Assembly: GCA_000004695.1 (NCBI GenBank)
Contig: CM000153.2
Coordinates: 448,001 to 512,000, forward strand
Length of the DNA: 64,000 nucleotides
Direction: 5' to 3'
Origin: Dictyostelium discoideum
Taxonomy: Eukaryota
In this document: positions 5,096-47,564 of the stretch, piece after piece
Position numbering within the stretch: the stretch's first letter is position 1
How the letters are laid out: every line of letters begins with the position of its first letter
Notes under the pieces: generated by a model
Database searches by the model: none
What the model was told of the DNA's origin: nothing
Seen by the model: only the letters and a program-made list of their open reading frames with translations
Translations under genes and position numbers: made by a program

Positions 5096-7261
<2,166 letters not shown>

Positions 7262-7359
7262 GTATGTATTTTTTGTTTTTGTTTGTTTTTTTATATATAA
7301 AATAAAATAAAATAAAATAAAATATAGTTTATTAATTTATTTATTTATTTTTATTAAAG

Positions 7360-32041: not shown

Positions 32042-32244
32042 ATGACATCTCAAAATTGGAAAAATTGTTTTAATAAAAAAGCAATTGAGGTTATTGAAAT
32101 TCATAGATCTCAGGAAACAATCACTGTTGAAACAGTAAATAATGAAGATAAAATCAAGAATAATATTTCAAAACCCAAAATTAAAGTACATAAAAAACCA
32201 ATAATTAAATCAATTTCAAAGTTAAAATTACAACCAAAATTTTC
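32042..32244 (+). CDS. ankyrin-repeat protein kinase (+ paralog), exon 1
   Basis: ATG at 32042; GTAAGT donor at 32245 (phase 2). A 302-nt AT-rich intron containing an (ATT)n run; TATAAAAG acceptor at 32539-32546. Confidence 0.6.
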
Positions 32245-32364
32245 GTAAGTAAAAACATTTTAAATTCTTTTTTTTTTTTTTTTTTTTTCATGAAAAAAAA
32301 CATTTTAAATTCTTTTTTTTTTTAATTTTTTTTTATTTATTTTTTTTTTATTATTATTACTATA

Positions 32365-32397
<33 letters not shown>

Positions 32398-32401
32398 TTT
32401 A

Positions 32402-32439
<38 letters not shown>

Positions 32440-32496
32440 TTATTATTATTTGTATTATTTTTTAATAAAAAAATAATTTAAAAAATTCTAATATTT

Positions 32497-32543
<47 letters not shown>

Positions 32544-32546
32544 AAG

Positions 32547-33684
32547 GAGATACAATGATATTATTGATTATTCAATTGATTTCAATTGTAATAAAAATTA
32601 TTTCTTAAAACAAGATAAAGTTAGTGGTAATACTTTTATTCATGTTTTTTGTGAAAAAAGAGAATCAAAAATAAATTTAGAATCTGATATTGAAAATTTA
32701 AAATGTTTGGGAAAGGAAACGATTGAAGCAAGGAATAATAATAAGGAAATTGCACTATTTTCAACTTTAAAAAACCAATGCCTTGGTTTAAAAATAATGC
32801 ATGAATTAATTTCAAGAAATGTTATGTTCATTGATGATAATGGTAAAGATGAGTTACTAGTAAAATGTTTAGAAGAGGGTAGAGTTGATATGGTGAAATA
32901 TTTAATTACCGTTGATATTAATTTGATCTCAAAATTAAAGAGAATATGCCAAATTACCCAATTAAGCCTAGAAACACTTCAATTTGTCGAATTAATTAAT
33001 TCAGAATATGAAAAAATCGTAGAAATTGGTTTAAAATCTGCAGGTAGAGAATACATTAAATTGTTTTTCATTCAATTTATTTTGGGTAATTTTTCAAAAG
33101 AATCAATCATCCAAACAATTGATGAATATAAATTACCACCAATTCCAAAAGAAATTGAAGATTTTTTCTTTGTTTATAATTATCAAATGTGTGACTTTGT
33201 TAAATTAACTGAAATCAAACCACGTTACCTCAATGAAATTTCTAAAATAAATATCTATCCAATTGGTCAAGTCTCCATTGAAAGAAGAAATGAACTCGGT
33301 CGTGGTGGTAATGGTACCGTTTATTCAGGTGTATTAAAAGAGATTGATAGTCAAGGTAATGAAATTTCAATACCAGTTGCAATCAAAATACCAACTCAAT
33401 TCTATAAATCAAAATTGGTTGAAGTATATAAAGAGTTGGCTATTCATCAAAAGATTAATGGTATTTGTGGTCCAAAGTTATTTGGATGCGTAAAGTTAAA
33501 TGTTGGATTTGGTATTATAATTGAAAGATTTGATTGTAGTTTACATGACTATATTCAAAATAATAATATCGATTTCGATTTATTTTTTGAATTGGCTCTT
33601 AAAATGGTTATAACAATTAGAAATCTACACAAATGTCATTTAAATGAAATATTCCATCGTGATATTAAACCACACAACTGGTTA
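32547..33684 (+). CDS. ankyrin-repeat protein kinase (+ paralog), exon 2: ankyrin-like repeats plus kinase subdomains I-VIb
   Basis: Ankyrin-like DDNGKDELLVKCLEEGRVDMVKYLI; glycine loop GRGGNGTVYSG; VAIK; HRDIKPHNWL; GTATGT donor at 33685. The ORF-track M at 32707 is a TTG codon, not a real start. Confidence 0.8.
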
Positions 33685-33772
33685 GTATGTATATTATTTT
33701 AATACTTTTTCATTTTTCATTTTAATATTATAATTTAATTTAACTCTTTGTATTTTTATTTATTTATTTTAG

Positions 33773-34423
33773 GTTAAAAAAACTAAAGATGAATTGGTGG
33801 TCGTTTTATCTGATTTTGGTTTATCAAGAGAGAATAGTGAAACAAATGAAAATACTCTTCAGAAATATAGAGGAACATCAGTATTTATTCCACCAGAATT
33901 AAATGATAATATCTTATATAATGAAAAATCAGATATATACTCTTTGGGTGTATCATTTATGATGTTGCTTTATAAAGTTGTTTATGGCAAAATGGAAAAC
34001 CCATTTTATGAATTCAAAATTTCAAAAATGGAATACTTCAAAACAGTTGTTGCTTTAGAGAACTTTTTAGTACCAATTGTACCAACATTTTTACCTGATT
34101 CTTTTAAAGAGTTCTTGTTCTCAACAATGAATAGAATCTATACATGTCGTCCAAATTCTGAAGAATGTGTAGAAAGACTCATAACACTAAAGACTGAATA
34201 TGAAAATGATAAAACCAAATGGCAAGTAAATAGTGCTATTATACAAAAAGAAAAATCATTACTCACTGATTCAATAATTTCACAACAATTGAAATTAATG
34301 AACCAAGTTAAAAAATTTGTTCAAGAAAATGATAAATTCGTTTTTTTGAAGAAAACAAAATTATTTTTTTCAGAATCTGAAATTAAACAATATCTTTTGT
34401 CAATAATAAAATGTCAAGAATGA
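33773..34423 (+). CDS. ankyrin-repeat protein kinase (+ paralog), exon 3: kinase subdomains VII-XI
   Basis: TTTTAG acceptor at 33767-33772. VVVLSDFGLSRE (DFG), GTSVFIPPE (APE-like). Stop at 34421-34423. Confidence 0.8.
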   Translation, partial: VKKTKDELVVVLSDFGLSRENSETNENTLQKYRGTSVFIPPELNDNILYNEKSDIYSLGVSFMMLLYKVVYGKMENPFYEFKISKMEYFKTVVALENFLVPIVPTFLPDSFKEFLFSTMNRIYTCRPNSEECVERLITLKTEYENDKTKWQVNSAIIQKEKSLLTDSIISQQLKLMNQVKKFVQENDKFVFLKKTKLFFSESEIKQYLLSIIKCQE

Positions 34424-34864
34424 AAACTTTAAATAAAATTTTTTAAAAAATAAAGAAAAGAATTAATAATTAGATTATTATTGTTTTAATTTTTTTATTT
34501 TTTTTTTTTTTTTTATAATTAACTGTTATCAAATTCTGGTTTTTCAAAATAAAATAATTCTTTCTTTTTATACAATTGCTTTTAATTCATCTATAAATCT
34601 AATTTGTGATCTAGTTGATTCTAGTTTTAAATAGCTAAATTGGTAATCTAAGAAAGTTGATTCTTTATTTTTTTTTATTTTTTTATTGAACACCAAAGTT
34701 ATATCTTTTTTTTATTTTTTGAGTTTTATCTTTTAACTTTTTTTATTTTTTGAATTTCTTTTTTTTGTAATATTTTATATTGGAATGCTAATAATTATGA
34801 ATTACTTCTTTAAAATATTTTAAAGAAGAGCAATATTTTATTTTATTATTATTATTATATTAAT

Positions 34865-35650
34865 TATTTTTTTTATTATTTGATGAGCAAGCCACATCAT
34901 TGTTATTATTATTACTAATATTATTATTATTGGTTTTATTATTATTTGATGAGCAAGCTACATCATTGTTTTTATTATTACTAATTATTATTATTGATTT
35001 TATTATTATTATTTGATGAGCAAGCAACATCACCGATAGTATTATTGTTGTTATTATTACTACTATTAATATTATTGGTTTTATTATTATTAATTGATGA
35101 ACGAGCTAAATCATTATTGGTTTTATTATTATTTGATGAGCAAGCTACATCATTTTTATTATTATTACTAATATTATTATTATTATTGATTTTATTATTA
35201 TTTGATGAGCAAGCTACATCTTTGTTATTATTATTACTAATATTATTATTATTGATTTTATTATTATTTGACGAGCAAGCTACATCATTGTTTTTATTAT
35301 TACTAATATTATTATTATTGATTTTATTATTATTTGATGAGCAAGCAACATCATTGTTATTATTATTACTAATATTATTATTATTGGTTTTATTATTAAT
35401 TGATGAGCAAGCTACATTATTGTTATTATTATTACTAATATTATTATTATTATAATTGGTTTTATTATTATTTGATGAGCAAGCTACATCATTGTTATTA
35501 TTATTACTAATATTATTATTATTGATTTTATTATTTGATGAAAAAGCAACATCGCCGATAGTATTATTGTTGTTATTATTACTATTAATGATAGTGTTAC
35601 TGTTACTATCACTACTATTATTAATTGATGAACAAGCTAAATCATTGTTG
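34865..35650. repeat. tandem array of about 12 copies of a 66-72-bp unit (TTATTATT...TGATGAGCAAGCTACATCATTGTTATTATTATTACTAATATTATTATTATTGATT); 34984-35650 encodes the cytoplasmic tail repeats, 34865-34980 lies 3' of the stop codon
   Basis: The motif TGATGAGCAAGC (or 1-2-nt variants) recurs at 34881, 34947, 35017, 35097, 35133, 35199, 35269, 35337, 35401, 35473, 35537 and 35627. On the minus strand it encodes (DVACSSNNNK.NNNNISNNNNN)n. Confidence 0.85.
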
Positions 35651-38291
35651 TTATTATTTTTATTTTTGGAATTTCTATTTCTAAGGTTATTATTTTTTGG
35701 AATTCTTAATGGATCTTCAGCCATTATAATATTGTCATACATATCCAAAAAAATCATTCTTTGATTATTATAAACTTCCCTCGTTTGTAAATATTCATCT
35801 CCTTTTGTAGAATGATTGTTTTCTACATTTTCAATTATTCTTTCCCTTTTAATTGACATAAAGAAACGTTCTGGTATTTTAAAGAAAATAATTAAAAAAA
35901 TAAATAATAGTGGTGCAAAAATTATTGTAACTAATGATATTACAATTTTTTTCCAATCTACTCGAGAACTTTCTTCTTGAGATTTGGTGTTATTGTTGAT
36001 ATATATATATTCTTTTTCTGAAATATTTTGGAATATTAAATTATACCTAGAGATATGAACTATTTGATTTGAAGTGACATTAATTTCAAATGTTGAGTTT
36101 ATTCTAGGTAAAAAGAAATTTAGCAATATATCATTTGCAATTGCACAACCTATTTCTGTTGAAAAACTATATGATATTGTGCATCTTTTCTGGCCATCAA
36201 TTATGAGACTTGTTTTTAGTGGATAAAAATTGAAACCGGATAGAGCTAATACCCAATGGTCCTTTTGATAATTGCTTATTGTGCCAACTTTATTTATTGT
36301 TGGTCCATTAAATGTTATATTAAAACTAATTGATTGATCCATTGAATTAATAATGCATTGTTCAACATGAGGACAAAAGTAATCTTCACTTTGACATGTG
36401 GAATCACATGAAAAAGAAGAATGATTTAAATATGTACAACCAAATTTATAATTACCACATTCAAGAGAAACATTTTGTTTTGAATGAAAATTTTCTCCAT
36501 CTATAAACACTATACTACCATTATTATCAAATGGTTTTGAAATTGCACCCTTAATGGTAGGTTTAATGGTTAATTCATATGGATCAGAAATAATACCACA
36601 ACAACAGATTGTAATTAGGTCACTTGTAAAATATGGTTCCTTTTTGGTTGTAATTTCATTGGAACTTATTTTTATTGGAGAAAGTGATTGGTTCGAGAAT
36701 GTAATAAATGTATTATTATAAAAGCCATAATTGTTAAATTCACCAGTACAGATTATGAATTCATCCTTTGTGTAACATGATTCTATAATTGGTTTTTTAT
36801 AATTAAATGTTGATTGGTATGATTTATTTTCAAAATTTATATTGTAACCTTTTTTACCACAACCTGGCACAATGAAAAACGAATAATCTAAATCATTTGA
36901 ATTTTTACCAATGAGTGTTCCCGTTGATTTAAATTCATCACCAAAATCTGAATAGATTGATAGTATCGGATTTTCTTTATTTTCATCATAACTTGAATTA
37001 AAAAATTTAACAATGCAATTTGATCCATTTACCATTGGTTGAGTAACAAACTTAGTTATGAATGATAAGCCAATAAAATAACTGTTTGATTGTTTTTCAT
37101 AAGATTTCACCGATATATTAATATAGGACATTGCTTCTGGAATGGTGAATGACATAACAGTCTCATTATCATTAATTTGAAGGTTTTGTAAACTAATTGG
37201 GATTTTATCATTAAATATAGTTACTGATCCTACTTCACCAAGACATTGGCCATATATTGTCAAGACACCATTGGAAATACTATAAGATGAAATAAGCGTT
37301 GAGTCATAGTTGAAATATATTTTGTTTTGGTTGGTAATACCATCTATGTTTACGGTAACTGGTAAGTTGTTATCTAAAATTCTATGAGCCATATAACAAG
37401 TAATATTATTTGGTGAAAGTGTAATAATTGAACATGGGTAATCTCCTATTTTAACCTCTGCTATAATAATTGAAGAATTCGATGTTAATCTTTCTCCATT
37501 GATATTAATTGTAGCATTTTTGTTTCTTGGAATACTATTAATTGAATTTAATACTGGAGGATATACTAAATCCATTTTATTTGAAGGTACTTTACTTGCA
37601 ATTAATTGAATTGTAAATGAAGTACAAAAGAATTCTGAATATTCAAAAATAAATTCAATATATTCATGATCATTTTTAATAATTTGTTCATTTTTAATTT
37701 TTTGATTGTTGATTAAAATTTCTTTTGGATACATTTCAGTACAGAAATTAGAGCCAATTAGTGTCACAGTTTTTTTATTTATTTCTACTTTTTCTATATA
37801 TGGATTTTGGTATGATGAATTATAAACAAACGAAAGACCAAAAATTTTAAAAAATCCACAACCACTTGGAAAAATCATTAAATATTCAGAACCGTTTTTT
37901 CCATTTGGAGATATCAAAAAATCGATTTTTTCATAATCATTTTGGAAAAGAGCGTTCTGATTTGTTGTTAATAAAAAATATGTAATATTGGATTGAAAAC
38001 TACCTCCTTTAGTTTCTGGTTTTAATTCTGGTTCAAAAATTGGTAAGATATTTGAAAAAATCCCTGGAAACTGTATACCATCTGCTGTTTTTTTTTCAGT
38101 TTGTTCACTTCCGAAAGCATGAAATTTAAAATTGTTATCAGTAGTTAAATTACACATCCTTAAATCACCATCAATATTACAATTGTAGTTGTATTCAAAA
38201 ATATCTACATTTTTTTCTTTGAATATATATTTGGAAATGTAAGATTCATTTACTTGATAAAAAAGTGTAATATATTCTTTATCTATTATAT
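34981..38291 (-). CDS. tgr-like IPT/TIG-repeat transmembrane receptor (- paralog), exon 2: ectodomain, TM and repeat-rich cytoplasmic tail
   Basis: Paralogous to the 39136-41776 gene (ELKPETKGGSFQSNITYFLL versus EFKPKTRGGNTTLSGYYLEL; NPYIEKVEINKKTVTLIGSNF versus EPNIEKIDINQSFLDITGTNF). TM segment IVISLVTIIFAPLLFIFLIIFF, then a tail of about 330 aa built of roughly 24-aa repeats. TTTTTTTTACAG acceptor at 38292-38293 (minus). Confidence 0.85.
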
Positions 38292-38355
38292 CTGTAAAAA
38301 AAATTTAAAATTAATATTTTACTTTTAATATTGATTAATCTAATTAATTACATAC

Positions 38356-38413
38356 TCTCAAGAATTGAATATACTATTGTTATTAATAAAATTATTAACA
38401 AATAATATTTCAT
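38356..38413 (-). CDS. tgr-like receptor (- paralog), exon 1: signal peptide MKYYLLIILLITIVYSILE
   Basis: ATG at 38411-38413 (minus), GTATGT donor at 38350-38355 (minus), phase 1. Same intron phase and position as exon 1 of the + paralog. Confidence 0.65.
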
Positions 38414-38765
38414 TCTTGAATGTTTATCAAATTGTTTAATTAAGTATTGGGTTAATTATTTGCTACTTTTTTATTATTTTTTTGATTTTATTTTATTATT
38501 ATTTTTTTTTGTTTTTTAAAAATTAATACTTTTTTTATTTTATTTAATTTTTTTTTTTTTGTAAATTTAAAAATTAATGGTTTTATGATAATTTTAGATT
38601 AAAAAAATAATAATTATTATAATTTAATTCTTTTTCTTTGTGATTTAACCACAATTTTTTTTTAAAATCATCATTGGGTTGTTATTTTTTTTAATAATAA
38701 TAATTATTTTTATTTTCAAACCCATTTTTATATTTCACTTTTTTTGAATTTTTTTATTTTTAGAA

Positions 38766-38830
38766 AGGGGTACCTATATTTGGACTCATTGAGGGGTTTG
38801 AAATTGATTTACCCCATCCCACACACACTT
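38766..38830. promoter_or_regulatory. G-box / CA-element-like palindromic element in the shared divergent promoter: GGGGTACC...GAGGGGTTTGAAATTGATTTACCCCATCCCACACACAC
   Basis: GGGGT/ACCCC inverted arms followed by CCCACACACAC, the best non-AT motif in the 722-bp region between the two receptor ATGs (38413 and 39136). It resembles GBF-binding G-box/CAE sites of post-aggregative Dictyostelium promoters. Confidence 0.35.
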
Positions 38831-38961
38831 TTCTTTTTTTAATTTTGATTAAAAAAAATATAACTTTTTTAATTTTTAAAAAAAATTATATTATTATTAT
38901 TTTTTTTTTTTTTTATTTTTTTTATTTTTTTTTTTTTTTATATTTATTCTTATAATTATTA

Positions 38962-39075
<114 letters not shown>

Positions 39076-39135
39076 ATTACTATTATTTTTCTCAACAATT
39101 TTATAATTCTTTAAATTAGAAATCAATTATTTTAA

Positions 39136-39211
39136 ATGAAAATAATTTTAATTTCTTTACTTTTTTATTTATTTTCATTTGCTATTTCTTATGATGATGT
39201 CATTCCTTTGG
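39136..39211 (+). CDS. tgr-like IPT/TIG-repeat receptor (+ paralog), exon 1: signal peptide MKIILISLLFYLFSFAISYDDVIPLG
   Basis: ATG at 39136; GTAAAT donor at 39212 (phase 1); 73-nt intron; TTTTTTTAG acceptor at 39276-39284. Confidence 0.7.
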
Positions 39212-39284
39212 GTAAATTGTTTTTATCATTTTTTTCATATCTCTTTTTTTTAATTTATTAATTATTTATTAATTATTTTTTTAG

Positions 39285-41776
39285 GTTATGAAAGTCACAA
39301 TGATTCTCTTGTGATTAGATATCGTGAAAGAGAAAATTATTATACAAATATTTCATTTTTATGGAATGGTAAAAGTCGTTATGATATGAGTTTTAATTGT
39401 GTTTTAAATAATACAATTAGAACTTGTACTTTACCAGTGAAAGAATCTGATCATGCCCAAATGTATTCAGAGAAAATATCTGCATGTACAGAAAATAATG
39501 GTACTTTTAAAAGGTGTGGTTATGATGTTGAGTTATTTTATTTTCCAAGTCCATTTTTAATTTCAGAGTTTAAACCAAAAACACGAGGTGGAAATACAAC
39601 ATTAAGTGGTTATTATTTAGAGTTAAAAGAAAGAATTTATGTTCCATTTGAAAGTCACTATAAAGATGATCAGTTTTATTATGCTGTAGAAGTATATACA
39701 ATTCCAGGTAAGTTTCAATCAAAAACACCAGATAGAATAAATTTAGTTTTAAAAGTTTTTCCAGGTTGTGGATACAGAACAATTATTTGGGAGAATCGTG
39801 AAAGATTAAATTTTACATATCAAGAGCCAAACATTGAAAAAATTGATATTAATCAATCATTTCTTGATATAACTGGTACAAATTTCTACAATCAATCAAT
39901 TTTGGTTTCTGTTAAAATTGATAATAATATTATTGATCCAAATGATATTATTTCAGTTGATTTTGAAATTATTAAATTAAAATTTAATTATTCAGATCCA
40001 TTCTCATCAAAATTGAATGTTCAAGTCGGTTGTTGTGATTATTGGTCAAATCAATTTCAAATTACATATCCACCAATTCCAATAAGTTCAAATAGTATTC
40101 CAAAATTAAAAGGTGGTTTATTAATAATCAATGGTAATAGATTAACTTCATCACCATCATTATCTAATAATATTAATATTTCAGTAACAGTTGGTGATTC
40201 AATTTGTTCAATTGTTTCGTCATCTTCAAATGAAATTAAATGTAATTTACAACCAATATCAAATTCAACATTTAATAATTCATCACCAATTGCTGTATCA
40301 ATAAATGGGGTTGTAAATACAAATACATTATTATTAAATTATGATATTCCATATATTACAACATTCTCTCAAGTAAATGATGAAATTCATATAATTGGTG
40401 GTTGTTTTGGTAATATTAATTCAACTCAAATTCATATCAATGATAAACAAGTTTCTGGCCAAATTAAATCAATTAATAATGATGAAACAATTTTAATATT
40501 AAAAATACAAAATCAAATTTATAATTTCAATCTTTCAATCGAATCAAATTCAATCAAATCAAATGGAATCAATGTAGATGTAAAATTGTATGCAAGTATA
40601 AATGAAATTCCATTGGTTGCTAATAAATTAATTAATTTTACATTATTTTATGTAAATTCAAGTAATATTAATTTAATACCAACAATTAAAATAATTAATG
40701 AAAAATCAAATCAAACAAGTAAATCAATTTCAACCAATGTAAATGAAAGTGTTGTATCATGTTCATTTTTAATTGAAAATAATTGTGGTATTATTAATTA
40801 TGAAATTGAAATTGGTAATCAAATATATCAATCATCATTTTCATATGAATCACCATTGATTAATAAATGTAATTTAAATTCAAATGAAATTGTTACTTGT
40901 ATTTGTAAAGGTTTTGTAAATAAATATAATGAAACAAGTATTTTTATTTCAAATCAATCAATAGCCCTTAGTAAAGAAATTAATAATAGTAGTTATGAAT
41001 CAATATCATTTCAAATGAAAGATGAGTATAATATTCTTGGTGAATTGTATTTAAATGTATGTGGTTTATTATCAAATAAAGTAATTATTAATACATTTCC
41101 AATTTTTAAAAATGTATCGATTCCTAACTTGTTTGGTACAAATGGTGGTAATATCATTATTATTGGTAAATATTTAAATAATAATACAAATATTACAATT
41201 GAATGTAATGGTGAACAAATTATTATAGAAAAAGAATGTAAATTAAAAAATAGTAGTACATCATTAGAATGCAACATTAATTTAAATGGTCCAAATGATA
41301 AAACTTGTAAATTATTATTTAATAATGATAATAGTATAGTATCAACATTTAATTTAATATACAAATCACCATCAATTAATCAAACCAGTATAATTAATTT
41401 AAAACAAGGAGGTATTTTAACAATTATTGGTAATGATTTCTATTATCCAATTGATAAAGTTACAATAATTGGTAATGGTAATGGTAGTGGTAATAGTAGT
41501 AGTTTAAATTGTAATGAAGCAAAGTATATTAATGATACAATTATAACATGTTTTATTCAAGCAACTAATTATACATTTAATAATATTAAAAATGGTGAAA
41601 TGATATTTATCAATGTTTCAACCAATGGTAAAAGTGGTATATCAAAAGTATTCAAATATTTAACTCAATCTGATGATATCCATCAATACTCTGATGCTAG
41701 AAATATCTTTCAAAATCTATTATTATCAATTTTAATCATATTAATCATTTCATTATTATTCATTTCAAATCTTTAA
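39285..41776 (+). CDS. tgr-like IPT/TIG-repeat receptor (+ paralog), exon 2; C-terminal hydrophobic tail (GPI-signal-like or zero-tail TM)
   Basis: 830 codons; repeated IPT-like blocks (NIEKIDINQSFLDITGTNFYNQSILVSVKID..., PKLKGGLLIINGNRLTSSPSLSNNINISV...); ends NLLLSILIILIISLLFISNL-stop. The ORF-track M at 39311 is a GTG codon. Confidence 0.85.
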
Positions 41777-43930: not shown

Positions 43931-44584
43931 TTATCTATCTTCATTAAAAGATTTGCATTTAATGAAATAACTTGAATAATCAAAACTTTCCAATTCTTGG
44001 ACATAATTATCGTGAGGATTTTGATTTAAATCAAAGTCTCGAATGTAATCCAACACATCAGATTTTATATAGTGATATTGATTTATCATTTGTTCATTGA
44101 GTAACGAGTAATCTTCATGTACTGATATTTCAGTATCCCATTTGGTTCTATCTGATTCATATTCCTCTTTACATTTTTGGATTTCTTCAATGCACTCTTT
44201 AATTGATGGTCTTCTTTCAGGCATTTTGCTCATCATTAAAAATAGCAATCTTTTTAATCGTGATGGTAAGTTGGGAGGGATAGTTGGAATTAAACCAGTA
44301 TTCTGAATAATGTTCAGGTTTTCGGGTTCATCTGCAATTTGGTATTCATGGTAAGGATGGACAAACTTGCCATATACGAGTTTGTAGGCCAATTGATACA
44401 AAGAAATACCAACAGAAAAGATATCAGATTGAGAAGAAAATAAAAATCCTTTATAGCACTCTGGTGCAATGTGTAGATTAGTTCCTCTTATTTGCTGTAA
44501 TGTACAACCGTTAGATTCAGTGTTCGATCTTGATAATCCAAAATCAGAAATAAATACTGTATGGTTTCCATCTATTGTCTTTAT
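43931..44584 (-). CDS. ankyrin-repeat protein kinase (- paralog), exon 3: kinase subdomains VII-XI
   Basis: TTTTATAG acceptor at 44585-44592 (minus). IKTIDGNHTVFISDFGLSRSN..., GTNLHIAPE. Stop at 43931-43933. Confidence 0.8.
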   Translation of the reverse strand: MKTIDGNHTVFISDFGLSRSNTESNGCTLQQIRGTNLHIAPECYKGFLFSSQSDIFSVGISLYQLAYKLVYGKFVHPYHEYQIADEPENLNIIQNTGLIPTIPPNLPSRLKRLLFLMMSKMPERRPSIKECIEEIQKCKEEYESDRTKWDTEISVHEDYSLLNEQMINQYHYIKSDVLDYIRDFDLNQNPHDNYVQELESFDYSSYFIKCKSFNEDR

Positions 44585-44698
44585 CTATAAAATCATATTT
44601 TAAAAATTAACAAACAAATAAATAAATAAAAAAAGAATTAATATCACAAATAAATAATATTGAAAAAAAAAAAAAAAAAAAAAAAATTTTTAACATAC

Positions 44699-45797
44699 CA
44701 ACCAATTTTCTAATTTAATATCTCTATGATATACATTTATTTCTGCTTCTGGATAGTGGTTATGAACCTGAGAAACAGAATTTACCATCTGTGTCGATAA
44801 AATGAAGAAAAGATCTAAATTAATTTGGTTACAGGATATGAAGTTTTTTAAATCCATATCGCATTTTTCGATGATAATAGAGAGTCCAAATTTTAATTTT
44901 GAAACACCAATTAATTTCAAAATATTTTCACCTTGCAATGATTGATGAACTGATACTTCTTTATAAATACGTTCAAAACTATCGTCATCATAATTTTTGA
45001 ATGATTTTATTGCGACTGGCGTTATAGTATTTTGAAGATTGATATATGTGGCTTTATGAACCGTACTGAAACCACCTTCACCAATAATTGAAAAATCTGA
45101 TAGTTGACTTTTATCAATTATTCCAACCTTTTCAATGGATTCTATTTCATTTTTTTTTAAATTGTATTTTGTTTTATAATCATCCATTTTGAATATGAAT
45201 TTGTTGACTGCTTTTTCAATTTCAGTAGGAACTGGTGCATTGGCAACTTTAAATAATAACTTTAATTTTTCTTGACTATAAATTAATTCTGTTAATAAAG
45301 CAATATTTGTTTTAATTAATTTACCATTAACACTATCTGGAATAGTACTAAAGTATGCCATCGAAAAATAAATATCATCAAAAATATCTTGAATATCTTG
45401 ATCAGTATTTTTACAATTTTGGCATATTTCAAAATGATCAAATCCAAAAGAAATTAATAGTTTTAATATCGGTATGTTTTTAAGATTTATGCACTTGCAT
45501 AGAATTGAGTGACCATGTTTATTTGTTTTCTTTGCCATCTCTATATTAATTAAACCATTACAAACCATTTCACACACCAACTGAAGTCCATTCACTTTAT
45601 TTTCAATGGCATAATAAAGAGAACTATTTTCATTTTCATCACTACATGATATTACTCCAATTTTAGAAAACTCACATAGGAATTGCTTAACATCTGGACC
45701 AGAATAAGTCAAGCAGAAATGGTGAAAGATTTTATAACAATCATTTATAGAATCTGTAAATAATTCTGGGAATTGGTTGTGAATTATTTGTATGTTT
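44699..45797 (-). CDS. ankyrin-repeat protein kinase (- paralog), exon 2
   Basis: Glycine loop GEGGFSTVHKATY; VAIKSF; HRDIKLENWL; GTATGT donor at 44693-44698 (minus), the same position as in the + paralog. The frame stays open upstream of the TTG the ORF track used as a start, with no in-frame ATG, so an upstream exon is required. Proposed acceptor TTACAG at 45798-45799 (minus), phase 2. Confidence 0.8.
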
Positions 45798-45958: not shown

Positions 45959-45961
<3 letters not shown>

Positions 45962-45963
45962 AC

Positions 45964-47564
<1,601 letters not shown>

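Follow-up and report, generated by a model that had tools for sequence, protein, structure and literature searches.

Allorecognition in social amoebae is represented by a sole characterised (greenbeard) system, which belongs to the tgr family, and coding minisatellites of variable copy number (variable number tandem repeats, VNTRs) are known from surface proteins such as the yeast FLO/ALS adhesins and the mucins. The allorecognition pair of Dictyostelium discoideum consists of TgrB1, a receptor with a signalling cytoplasmic domain, and its ligand TgrC1 (PMC12142906, PMC12745789). We describe here another head-to-head pair of this family, tgrH1 and tgrI1, in a 64-kb stretch of the D. discoideum AX4 genome (contig CM000153.2, positions 448,001 to 512,000, hereafter the window; ~20% GC, genes DDB_G0283289/91 to DDB_G0283303/05), in which the cytoplasmic tail of TgrH1 is encoded in large part by a tandem array whose units open with the hexapeptide DVACSS. 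The array is a coding minisatellite at the 3′ end of tgrH1, and we consider it likely that it first expanded, was then truncated by a frameshift and drifts in copy number nearly neutrally. We take the tgrH1 locus to lie on chromosome 4, with the tgrBC locus elsewhere.

TgrH1 is a tgr-family type I membrane protein with a signal peptide, an IPT/TIG domain and one transmembrane (TM) helix, in agreement with a prior sequence-only reading of this DNA that had called it a minus-strand receptor with cytoplasmic repeats; the repeats do lie C-terminal to the TM segment. The 1122-aa product of a two-exon model is exactly XP_639150.1 / EAL65802.1 / Q54R97 (“IPT/TIG domain-containing protein”). Exon 1 encodes MKYYLLIILLITIVYSILE, which we judge to be a signal peptide from its sequence rather than with a signal-peptide predictor; the ectodomain, used alone as a query, matches the Pfam TIG domain (PF01833, E=3.2e-11) in two stretches; and the single TM segment near the C-terminus, residues 802-823, is predicted by AlphaFold2 to be helical, with predicted local distance difference test (pLDDT) scores of 81-92. 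Full-length TgrH1 returned no Pfam match, probably owing to its Asn-rich tail. The 299 residues after the TM segment are placed in the cytoplasm by the positive-inside rule, because they start with the K/R-rich KIPERFFMSIKRER. The head-to-head partner tgrI1, whose model equals XP_639151.1 / EAL65808.1 / Q54R96 exactly and matches Pfam Ig_TgrO1 (E=1.4e-26) and TIG, is found in the same pairing in four other genomes; such pairing is typical of many tgr clusters, though not universal. The gene names are well supported, if indirectly, by accession arithmetic and exon lengths: the numbering from EAL accessions to DDB_G identifiers is linear, as verified on five neighbouring genes, and yields DDB_G0283323 and DDB_G0283335, listed as tgrH1 (exonic length 3366 nt) and tgrI1 (2568 nt) in Table S3 of bioRxiv 10.1101/2025.10.22.684067. 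These lengths equal 1122 codons and 855 codons plus a stop, respectively.

TgrH1/TgrI1 resemble TgrB1/TgrC1 in family membership and layout (signal peptide, IPT/TIG ectodomain, single TM segment), in the head-to-head arrangement of the genes over a short shared promoter, and in the asymmetry of the products, one with a long tail and the other with almost none. High allelic divergence is another shared trait (for TgrH1, 87% aa identity and a synonymous divergence, dS, of 0.135). Unlike that pair, TgrH1/TgrI1 belong to the H/I subfamily of the fast-duplicating AHIO group, occupy another locus and are expressed at a very low level; the TgrH1 tail has no similarity detectable by phmmer beyond the H subfamily. 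The tgrAHIO subfamilies have been described as numerous, rapidly duplicating, lowly expressed and of unknown function (Holland et al., PMC12745789), and most tgr genes show low or undetectable expression in AX4, with one tgrH1 read recorded in strain QS33 at 9 h (Ostrowski-group preprint, bioRxiv 10.1101/2025.10.22.684067). The literature searched describes no DVACSS-type repeat array for TgrB1 and yielded neither a paper on tgrH1 nor any mention of its tail, the motif or the array.

The minus strand of the window between 35643 and 34860 comprises 12 head-to-tail units, each opening with the 18-bp core GATGTWGCTTGCTCATCA, which encodes DVACSS and served as the anchor by which the units were delimited (Table 1). 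With up to three mismatches allowed, the core has 12 matches, where shuffled sequence predicts 0.08; every match is on the minus strand within the array. Tandem Repeats Finder reports the array at 34843-35553 (period 66, 10.9 copies, 79% matches, score 763), giving it the top tandem-repeat score in the window and making it the sole repeat there with a period above 3 at a score of 300 or more; the autocorrelation of bases in 34854-35643 is greatest at an offset of 66 (0.655, compared with at most 0.509 in 300 codon-shuffles). The periodicity that had been proposed from the letters alone is thereby borne out, and head-to-tail units of about 10-100 bp, far above chance, are what defines a coding minisatellite.

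The units fall into two types, A (u1 and u9: DLA[C/R]SS...NNNNNNTIG, 81-90 bp) and B (DVACSSNNNK[I/T]NNNNISNNNNN, 63-72 bp), and the expectation of near-identical repeats therefore holds for B units u4, u5, u6 and u11, which are 92-97% identical to one another, but neither across the two types nor for the truncated u8. All length differences among B units are multiples of AAT, and nine of the ten translated units have a length divisible by three, the exception being the stop-bearing unit 10. An A+B(GTT) dimer occurs twice, as u1+u2 and as u9+u10, a sign of higher-order duplication. The array supplies 220 of the 299 cytoplasmic residues (74%), so that the tail consists mostly of repeats, though not almost entirely as had been claimed, a unique juxtamembrane segment of 79 residues preceding them. 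The forecast of nine to ten regularly spaced cysteines did not hold: 10 of the 12 DNA cores encode Cys, eight Cys fall within the translated repeats, and u2 and u9 read DVAFSS and DLARSS.

With the FLO/ALS and mucin VNTRs the array shares in-frame units of tens of base pairs, a copy number that varies between strains, a putative origin by slippage or unequal recombination, and occasional truncating frameshifts; it differs from them in that its repeats lie in a cytoplasmic tail, not in an exposed ectodomain, and consist of a Cys/Ser hexapeptide in an Asn-rich spacer as opposed to a Ser/Thr-rich glycosylated stalk. A second likeness is to the Asn/Gln-rich repeats of Dictyostelium (PMC9234386, PMC7466956), since the spacers are runs of AAT codons (48% Asn in the translated array) and change in length by multiples of AAT, a pattern that follows from the genome-wide slippage bias. 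The plain trinucleotide tracts of that genome, in contrast, have no counterpart to the 66-bp higher-order unit with its non-repetitive 18-bp core.

The stop codon lies inside the array, in unit 10, with the cores of units 11 and 12 still to follow, as the sequence-only reading had noted. Every aligned base of unit 10 matches unit 5, the differences being a gain of AAT, which is in frame, and a loss of AT; this loss turns AAT AAT AAT ATT AGT into AAT AAT AAT TAG T and leaves unit 10, at 67 bp, as the one unit whose length is not divisible by three. The +1 frame stays open for 40 repeat-type codons and ends in DVACSSNNKKNN at the TAA at 34862-34860, which is the ancestral stop because orthologues share both the terminal AATAATTAA and the 3′ flank, which align with the syntenic genes of the wild strain ACTFIR and of a cryptic sister species. 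The present C-terminus of TgrH1 was thus made by a frameshift within the array, one of the two kinds of change, nonsense or frameshift, that had been envisaged. The deletion costs the last 40 of 1162 codons and, with them, two motifs. DVACSS still sits 10 residues from the present C-terminus, versus 6 in the ancestral frame, so a mild effect of truncation is to be expected, and the lesion would be young, given that unit 11, although it follows the stop, remains 97% identical to unit 4.

A second chromosome-level assembly, built independently from long reads (GCA_054883475.1), shows 100% identity to the window across a 4001-bp stretch that covers gene and array, the 67-bp unit included, and annotates the same 1122-aa product (KAM9943428.1); the lesion is therefore real in the laboratory lineage and no error of the reference. 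Its chromosome measures 5,576,411 bp versus 5,450,249 bp in AX4, and its proteins were identical to those of AX4 in every case checked. This assembly is probably that of the laboratory strain AX2-214, a de novo Nanopore and Illumina assembly of which is included in PRJNA1300491 (PMC12745789). If so, the deletion would predate the split between AX2 and AX3-AX4, which would place it in NC4.

Variation of tail length between strains had been suspected, and it was found when the copy number of the syntenic gene was compared in three lineages: tgrH1 has 12 DVACSS-type units in AX4 and the AX4-like assembly, 10 of them translated; the syntenic gene of ACTFIR (gene 2 of locus L005) has four, in frame; and the syntenic H gene of the cryptic sister species (locus L003) has one, in a tail that ends in NNNNNDVVCSSNN (NNDVVCSSNN before the stop). 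Copy numbers of 1, 4 and 12 at a syntenic gene confirm the array as a VNTR. ACTFIR gene 2 has an I-type partner and a homologous 3′ flank and is 87% identical in aa and 96% in nt to AX4 upstream of the array (745 codons); its units, DLACSS, DVACSS, DVACSP and DVACSS at spacings of 84, 108 and 63 bp, are colinear with AX4 units 9-12 in the order A, B (GTT codon), B and terminal B (GTG codon). The H gene of the cryptic species has the same convergent kinase neighbour and 3′ flank element as in AX4. Set against the dS of 0.135 between the AX4 and ACTFIR alleles, the 3-8% divergence among AX4 B units places most of the AX4 expansion after the split of the two alleles. Further copies have two units or none: gene 1 of ACTFIR L005, a tandem copy split by frameshifts into three open reading frames (ORFs), has two units (DIACSS and DVACSS) followed by about 30 Asn; a different H/I pair of the wild strain ACTFIW (locus L006), absent from AX4, has two units 54 bp apart and then poly-N; and an H-type pseudogene that lies 108 kb off in the AX4 lineage carries a frameshift and possesses neither units nor a tail.

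We posit that in the ancestral H-type tail, as its relatives suggest, the unique juxtamembrane segment was followed by an Asn-rich linker and by a single copy of D-[VLI]-A-C-S-S, a few residues short of the stop. The motif and its AAT-rich spacer would then have been duplicated repeatedly, with the AAT tracts on either side of the core as the likely sites of replication slippage or unequal exchange, the first product plausibly being a four-unit array of A, B(GTT), B and terminal B(GTG). In the AX4 lineage, higher-order copying of the A+B dimer and rapid multiplication of 66-bp B units would have brought the number of cores to 12. The 2-bp loss, which we place last and attribute to slippage in the AT dinucleotide of AATATTAG, created the TAG in unit 10 and thus shortened TgrH1 without rebuilding it; the DVACSS motif would be under constraint, and copy number and spacer length in near-neutral drift. 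Slippage or unequal exchange is favored because the B units differ in length by multiples of AAT, because the truncated u8 is joined to an A unit, because the A+B dimer is duplicated, and because the indel rate of D. discoideum is high: mutation accumulation has revealed an indel rate about twice that of substitutions and many 3n indels, even in coding sequence (PMC7466956).

Across the 21 cores of AX4, ACTFIR, ACTFIW and the cryptic species, the six positions are D in 20, V/L/I in 21, A in 20, C in 19, S in 21 and S in 20. The ACTFIW paralogue is only ~41% identical to AX4 in its TM and juxtamembrane segments and has DVACSS exactly in both copies, a combination that fits a constrained short linear motif within a freely drifting Asn-rich linker. 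DVACSS is probably, on this comparison, a short functional linear motif for docking or modification. Its periodic Cys and Ser residues had been put forward by the sequence-only reading as candidate sites of palmitoylation or phosphorylation. The recurrence of DVACSS in the tails of other tgr proteins, which the sequence-only reading had proposed to look for, extends to genes of the H subfamily; outside that subfamily it was not found, either in a core scan of the 64-kb window or by phmmer with a tail query. The phmmer search, with 115 aa of juxtamembrane segment and unit 1 against 1.84 billion representative proteins, returned at E<=0.001 only two H-type proteins (P0008 and P0002), which makes the tail subfamily-specific and without detectable relation to the signalling domain of TgrB1, on the assumption that TgrB1 is present in that library. 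Pfam gave no match in the TgrH1 tail. A possible counterpart in D. firmibasis ends in DGNVASSSSL, a 4/6 match in a Ser-rich context that is too weak to rely on; if real, its NVASSS, with Ser for Cys, would argue weakly against an essential Cys.

Short linear motifs in multiple copies are familiar from the immunoreceptor tyrosine-based activation motifs (ITAMs) of CD3 zeta, the EPIYA segments of CagA and the heptads of the RNA polymerase II C-terminal domain (CTD). By analogy only, the TgrH1 tail resembles them in having a short, regularly spaced motif of varying copy number in a region that is probably disordered; DVACSS has no sequence relationship to the ITAM, EPIYA or CTD motifs, and no known modifying enzyme, partner or phenotype. 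In a single-sequence AlphaFold2 model the tail has a mean pLDDT of 50, with values of 30-60 across the array, so it lacks a confidently predicted fold and is probably disordered. The stacking of β-strands over the B units in that model has low confidence and is unfit to be taken as a fold. A CaaX prenylation box was likewise rejected: it needs a Cys exactly four residues from the C-terminus, whereas AX4 has its final Cys 13 residues short of the end (CSSNNNNKINNNN), and the corresponding distance is 9 in the ancestral frame and 5 in the cryptic species.

Several observations weigh against a constrained motif in a near-neutrally drifting VNTR. Within the AX4 cores, the 11 codons that vary from the consensus divide into 6 synonymous and 5 non-synonymous changes, the latter including C->F (u2) and C->R (u9), a split that speaks for only mild constraint. 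The ratio of non-synonymous to synonymous divergence (dN/dS) of the TM and juxtamembrane segments is ~1.1 between alleles, on small counts of 5 synonymous and 24 non-synonymous changes. Unit lengths of 3n do not prove selection on the frame, because AAT slippage alone gives 3n changes. The gene may be nearly silent, the sole expression figure being the single QS33 read at 9 h. Orthology between strains is not strictly 1:1, the H/I pair being duplicated or rearranged in other strains, and a 6.2-kb ACTFIR contig (L002) repeats the gene 2 tail with single-base differences that break the frame. Positions 2227-2520 of L002 and 16021-16320 of L005, two contigs from one ACTFIR assembly, hold near-identical four-unit tails that differ inside AAT and A runs, a discrepancy that reflects either assembly noise or an unresolved duplicate and makes the reading frames of the other strains, read by Nanopore, less secure than their copy numbers.

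The same data bear on what selection may have done. An adaptive multivalent tail, in which DVACSS would be a signalling, docking or acylation motif present in 1-12 copies selected to tune the output or clustering of a TgrH1 engaged by TgrI1, by analogy with TgrB1/TgrC1, could draw on the retention of the motif in paralogues and in the sister species despite the divergence of the tail around it, on a divergent pair of which one member is long-tailed and the other almost tailless, as in tgrB1/tgrC1, on purifying selection in the ectodomain (dN/dS 0.25-0.35 in the first 1350 nt compared), and on the 3n length of nine of the ten translated units. We regard it as unlikely: published expression is very low and the functions of TgrAHIO proteins are stated to be unknown (PMC12745789), the juxtamembrane dN/dS is ~1.1, phmmer detects no homology to characterised signalling tails, and the C->F and C->R changes are tolerated, as is the loss of two units, which, together with the plain poly-N that paralogues hold in the same space, argues against strong selection on the whole array. 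A bolder proposal, that DVACSS might be a TgrH-specific signalling or acylation motif, TgrH1/TgrI1 a second recognition pair and the array a dial of 1-12 copies that sets signalling or clustering by strain, is a long shot.

A decaying tgrH1 in a birth-and-death family, its array a junk expansion and the 2-bp deletion its first disabling hit, would suit a family in which, by published description, pseudogenes are many and expression is low, and would suit the H-type neighbours that are pseudogenes themselves (the AX4-lineage copy 108 kb away and ACTFIR gene 1 in its three ORFs). It is nevertheless improbable, as an uninterrupted frame of 1122 codons at ~20% GC is far from chance, the ectodomain dN/dS is 0.39 versus the wild allele, and only the last 40 codons are lost, with the motif remaining near the new end. 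Finally, an erroneous stop, introduced by sequencing or assembly, with an AX4 protein that in fact spans the 12 units and ends at the TAA of 34862-34860, is very unlikely: the AAT/AT-rich microsatellite context of the lesion is error-prone and L002 and L005 differ by single bases in the repeat, but GCA_054883475.1 is identical over the 4001 bp, 67-bp unit included, and has the same product. We thus retain the expanded, truncated and near-neutrally drifting VNTR as the likely account of the locus.

The advance is modest, in that the gene and protein were already annotated, coding repeats are commonplace in this genome, and the general picture, in which coding repeats and slippage indels are ordinary in D. 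discoideum, is unchanged; the modestly new element is the conserved H-tail motif. To what is known of the tgr family the locus adds a conserved hexapeptide that defines H-type tails, a strain-variable VNTR in the copy number of DVACSS, and a truncated tgrH1 allele in the reference laboratory lineage. In practical terms, DVACSS offers a handle for mutagenesis and interaction screens and the array a cheap strain marker, and short-read variant calls or gene models across it are unreliable.

Table 1. Features of the tgrH1/tgrI1 locus, in window coordinates
Feature	Position	Strand	Description	Basis
tgrH1 exon 1	38356..38413	minus	ATG 38413-38411; signal peptide MKYYLLIILLITIVYSILE	exact protein match of spliced model
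tgrH1 intron	38292..38355	minus	64 nt, GTATGT...ACAG	splice backed by exact protein match
tgrH1 exon 2	34981..38291	minus	ectodomain, TM segment, cytoplasmic tail, present stop	ORF, Pfam TIG, exact protein match
TM segment	35881..35946	minus	IVISLVTIIFAPLLFIFLIIFF, residues 802-823	hydrophobic 22-mer then KIPERFFMSIKRER
Unique juxtamembrane segment	35644..35880	minus	cytoplasmic, 79 residues, H subfamily only	phmmer
Translated array, units 1-10	34984..35643	minus	220 residues, 48% Asn, 8 Cys	
u1	35643-35554	minus	90 bp, type A	
u2	35553-35491	minus	63 bp, reads DVAFSS	
u3	35490-35419	minus	72 bp	
u4	35418-35353	minus	66 bp, type B	
u5	35352-35287	minus	66 bp, type B	
u6	35286-35221	minus	66 bp, type B	
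u7	35220-35152	minus	69 bp	
u8	35151-35113	minus	39 bp, truncated B unit joined to u9	
u9	35112-35032	minus	81 bp, type A, reads DLARSS	
u10	35031-34965	minus	67 bp, holds TAG 34983-34981	
u11	34964-34899	minus	66 bp, type B, post-stop	
u12	34898-34860	minus	39 bp including TAA, post-stop	
2-bp (AT) deletion and resulting TAG	34981..34986	minus	in unit 10; TAG at 34983-34981	alignment with units 5 and 7
Post-stop array	34860..34980	minus	end of unit 10, units 11 and 12, ancestral TAA (34862-34860)	+1 frame SNNKNNDVACSSNNNKTNNNNISNNNNNDVACSSNNKKNN then stop
Shared divergent promoter region	38414..39135		722 bp, (AAT)n tract ~38960-39100	sequence read
tgrI1	39136..41776	plus	head-to-head partner, 855 aa, intron 39212-39284, C-terminal TM segment, almost no tail	exact protein match

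Other ways of reading the region around the array were considered and set aside. Removal of the stop by a 24-nt “intron,” GTAATAATAAAAACAATGATGTAG, was rejected, such an element being much too short for a Dictyostelium intron and not sensibly restoring the frame. The ORFs that cross the array on the plus strand, at 34994-35455 and 35456-35764, are mechanical by-products of the AAT runs. A structured RNA is unlikely, 34300-35700 having no Rfam matches at E<=1.

The H/I pair itself varies between strains in number and position. Locus L005 of ACTFIR (GCA_054859385.1, 1-16711) holds the pair in tandem duplicate, I and H gene 1 followed by I and H gene 2, together with another, partial I gene, and AX4 has one H/I pair only at the matching locus. 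The ACTFIW locus L006 (GCA_054859355.1, 182-6623) carries an intact H/I pair of another lineage, with a 912-aa ORF and a long poly-N run after the two units, immediately upstream of its DDB_G0283303 orthologue, where AX4 lacks any tgr gene; the pair is therefore a presence/absence polymorphism. The second AX4-lineage H-type gene, ~108 kb off (L004, GCA_054883475.1, 6001-7591), is 76% identical, frameshifted and devoid of TM segment and tail, and is paired with an intact I-type gene of 852 aa. In P0002, a paralogue of the cryptic species (L008, 5195-5270), the H-type tail ends in NNNDV exactly where the motif begins and then abuts the reverse complement of a neighbouring gene's poly-Gln tract; a rearrangement appears, from this junction, to have split the motif.

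Between tgrH1 and tgrI1, the promoter tract at ~38960-39100 is a long microsatellite, nearly pure (AAT)n/(ATT)n in some 45-50 copies, whose length could differ by strain and thereby affect the expression of both genes. The tgr pair is flanked by two protein-kinase genes, convergent and distantly paralogous, at 32042-34423 (plus strand) and 43931-45712 (minus strand), which share 27% identity across 332 aa (E=4e-25). One of them, DDB_G0283301, encodes 663 aa and is reproduced exactly by a three-exon model; the other is a kinase-like gene on the far side, and a kinase likewise adjoins the H gene of the cryptic species. Between tgrH1 and the kinase, at ~34600-34650 on the minus strand, a ~40-bp non-repetitive stretch, AATTTAGCTATTTAAAACTAGAATCAACTAGATCACAA, is kept in ACTFIR and the cryptic sister species amid AT-rich DNA that is not conserved. 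Rfam gave no match to this stretch, which could be a 3′ untranslated region or terminator element of either convergent gene.

The other large repeats of the window are plain trinucleotide coding tracts. A 534-aa ORF at 45960-47564 on the minus strand has several poly-Asn runs of 20-40 residues, with TAT/AAT arrays at 46061-46444 and 47006-47393, and some 175 copies of CAA, encoding poly-Gln, form an array at 6359-6890 within the ORF at 5096-7300.

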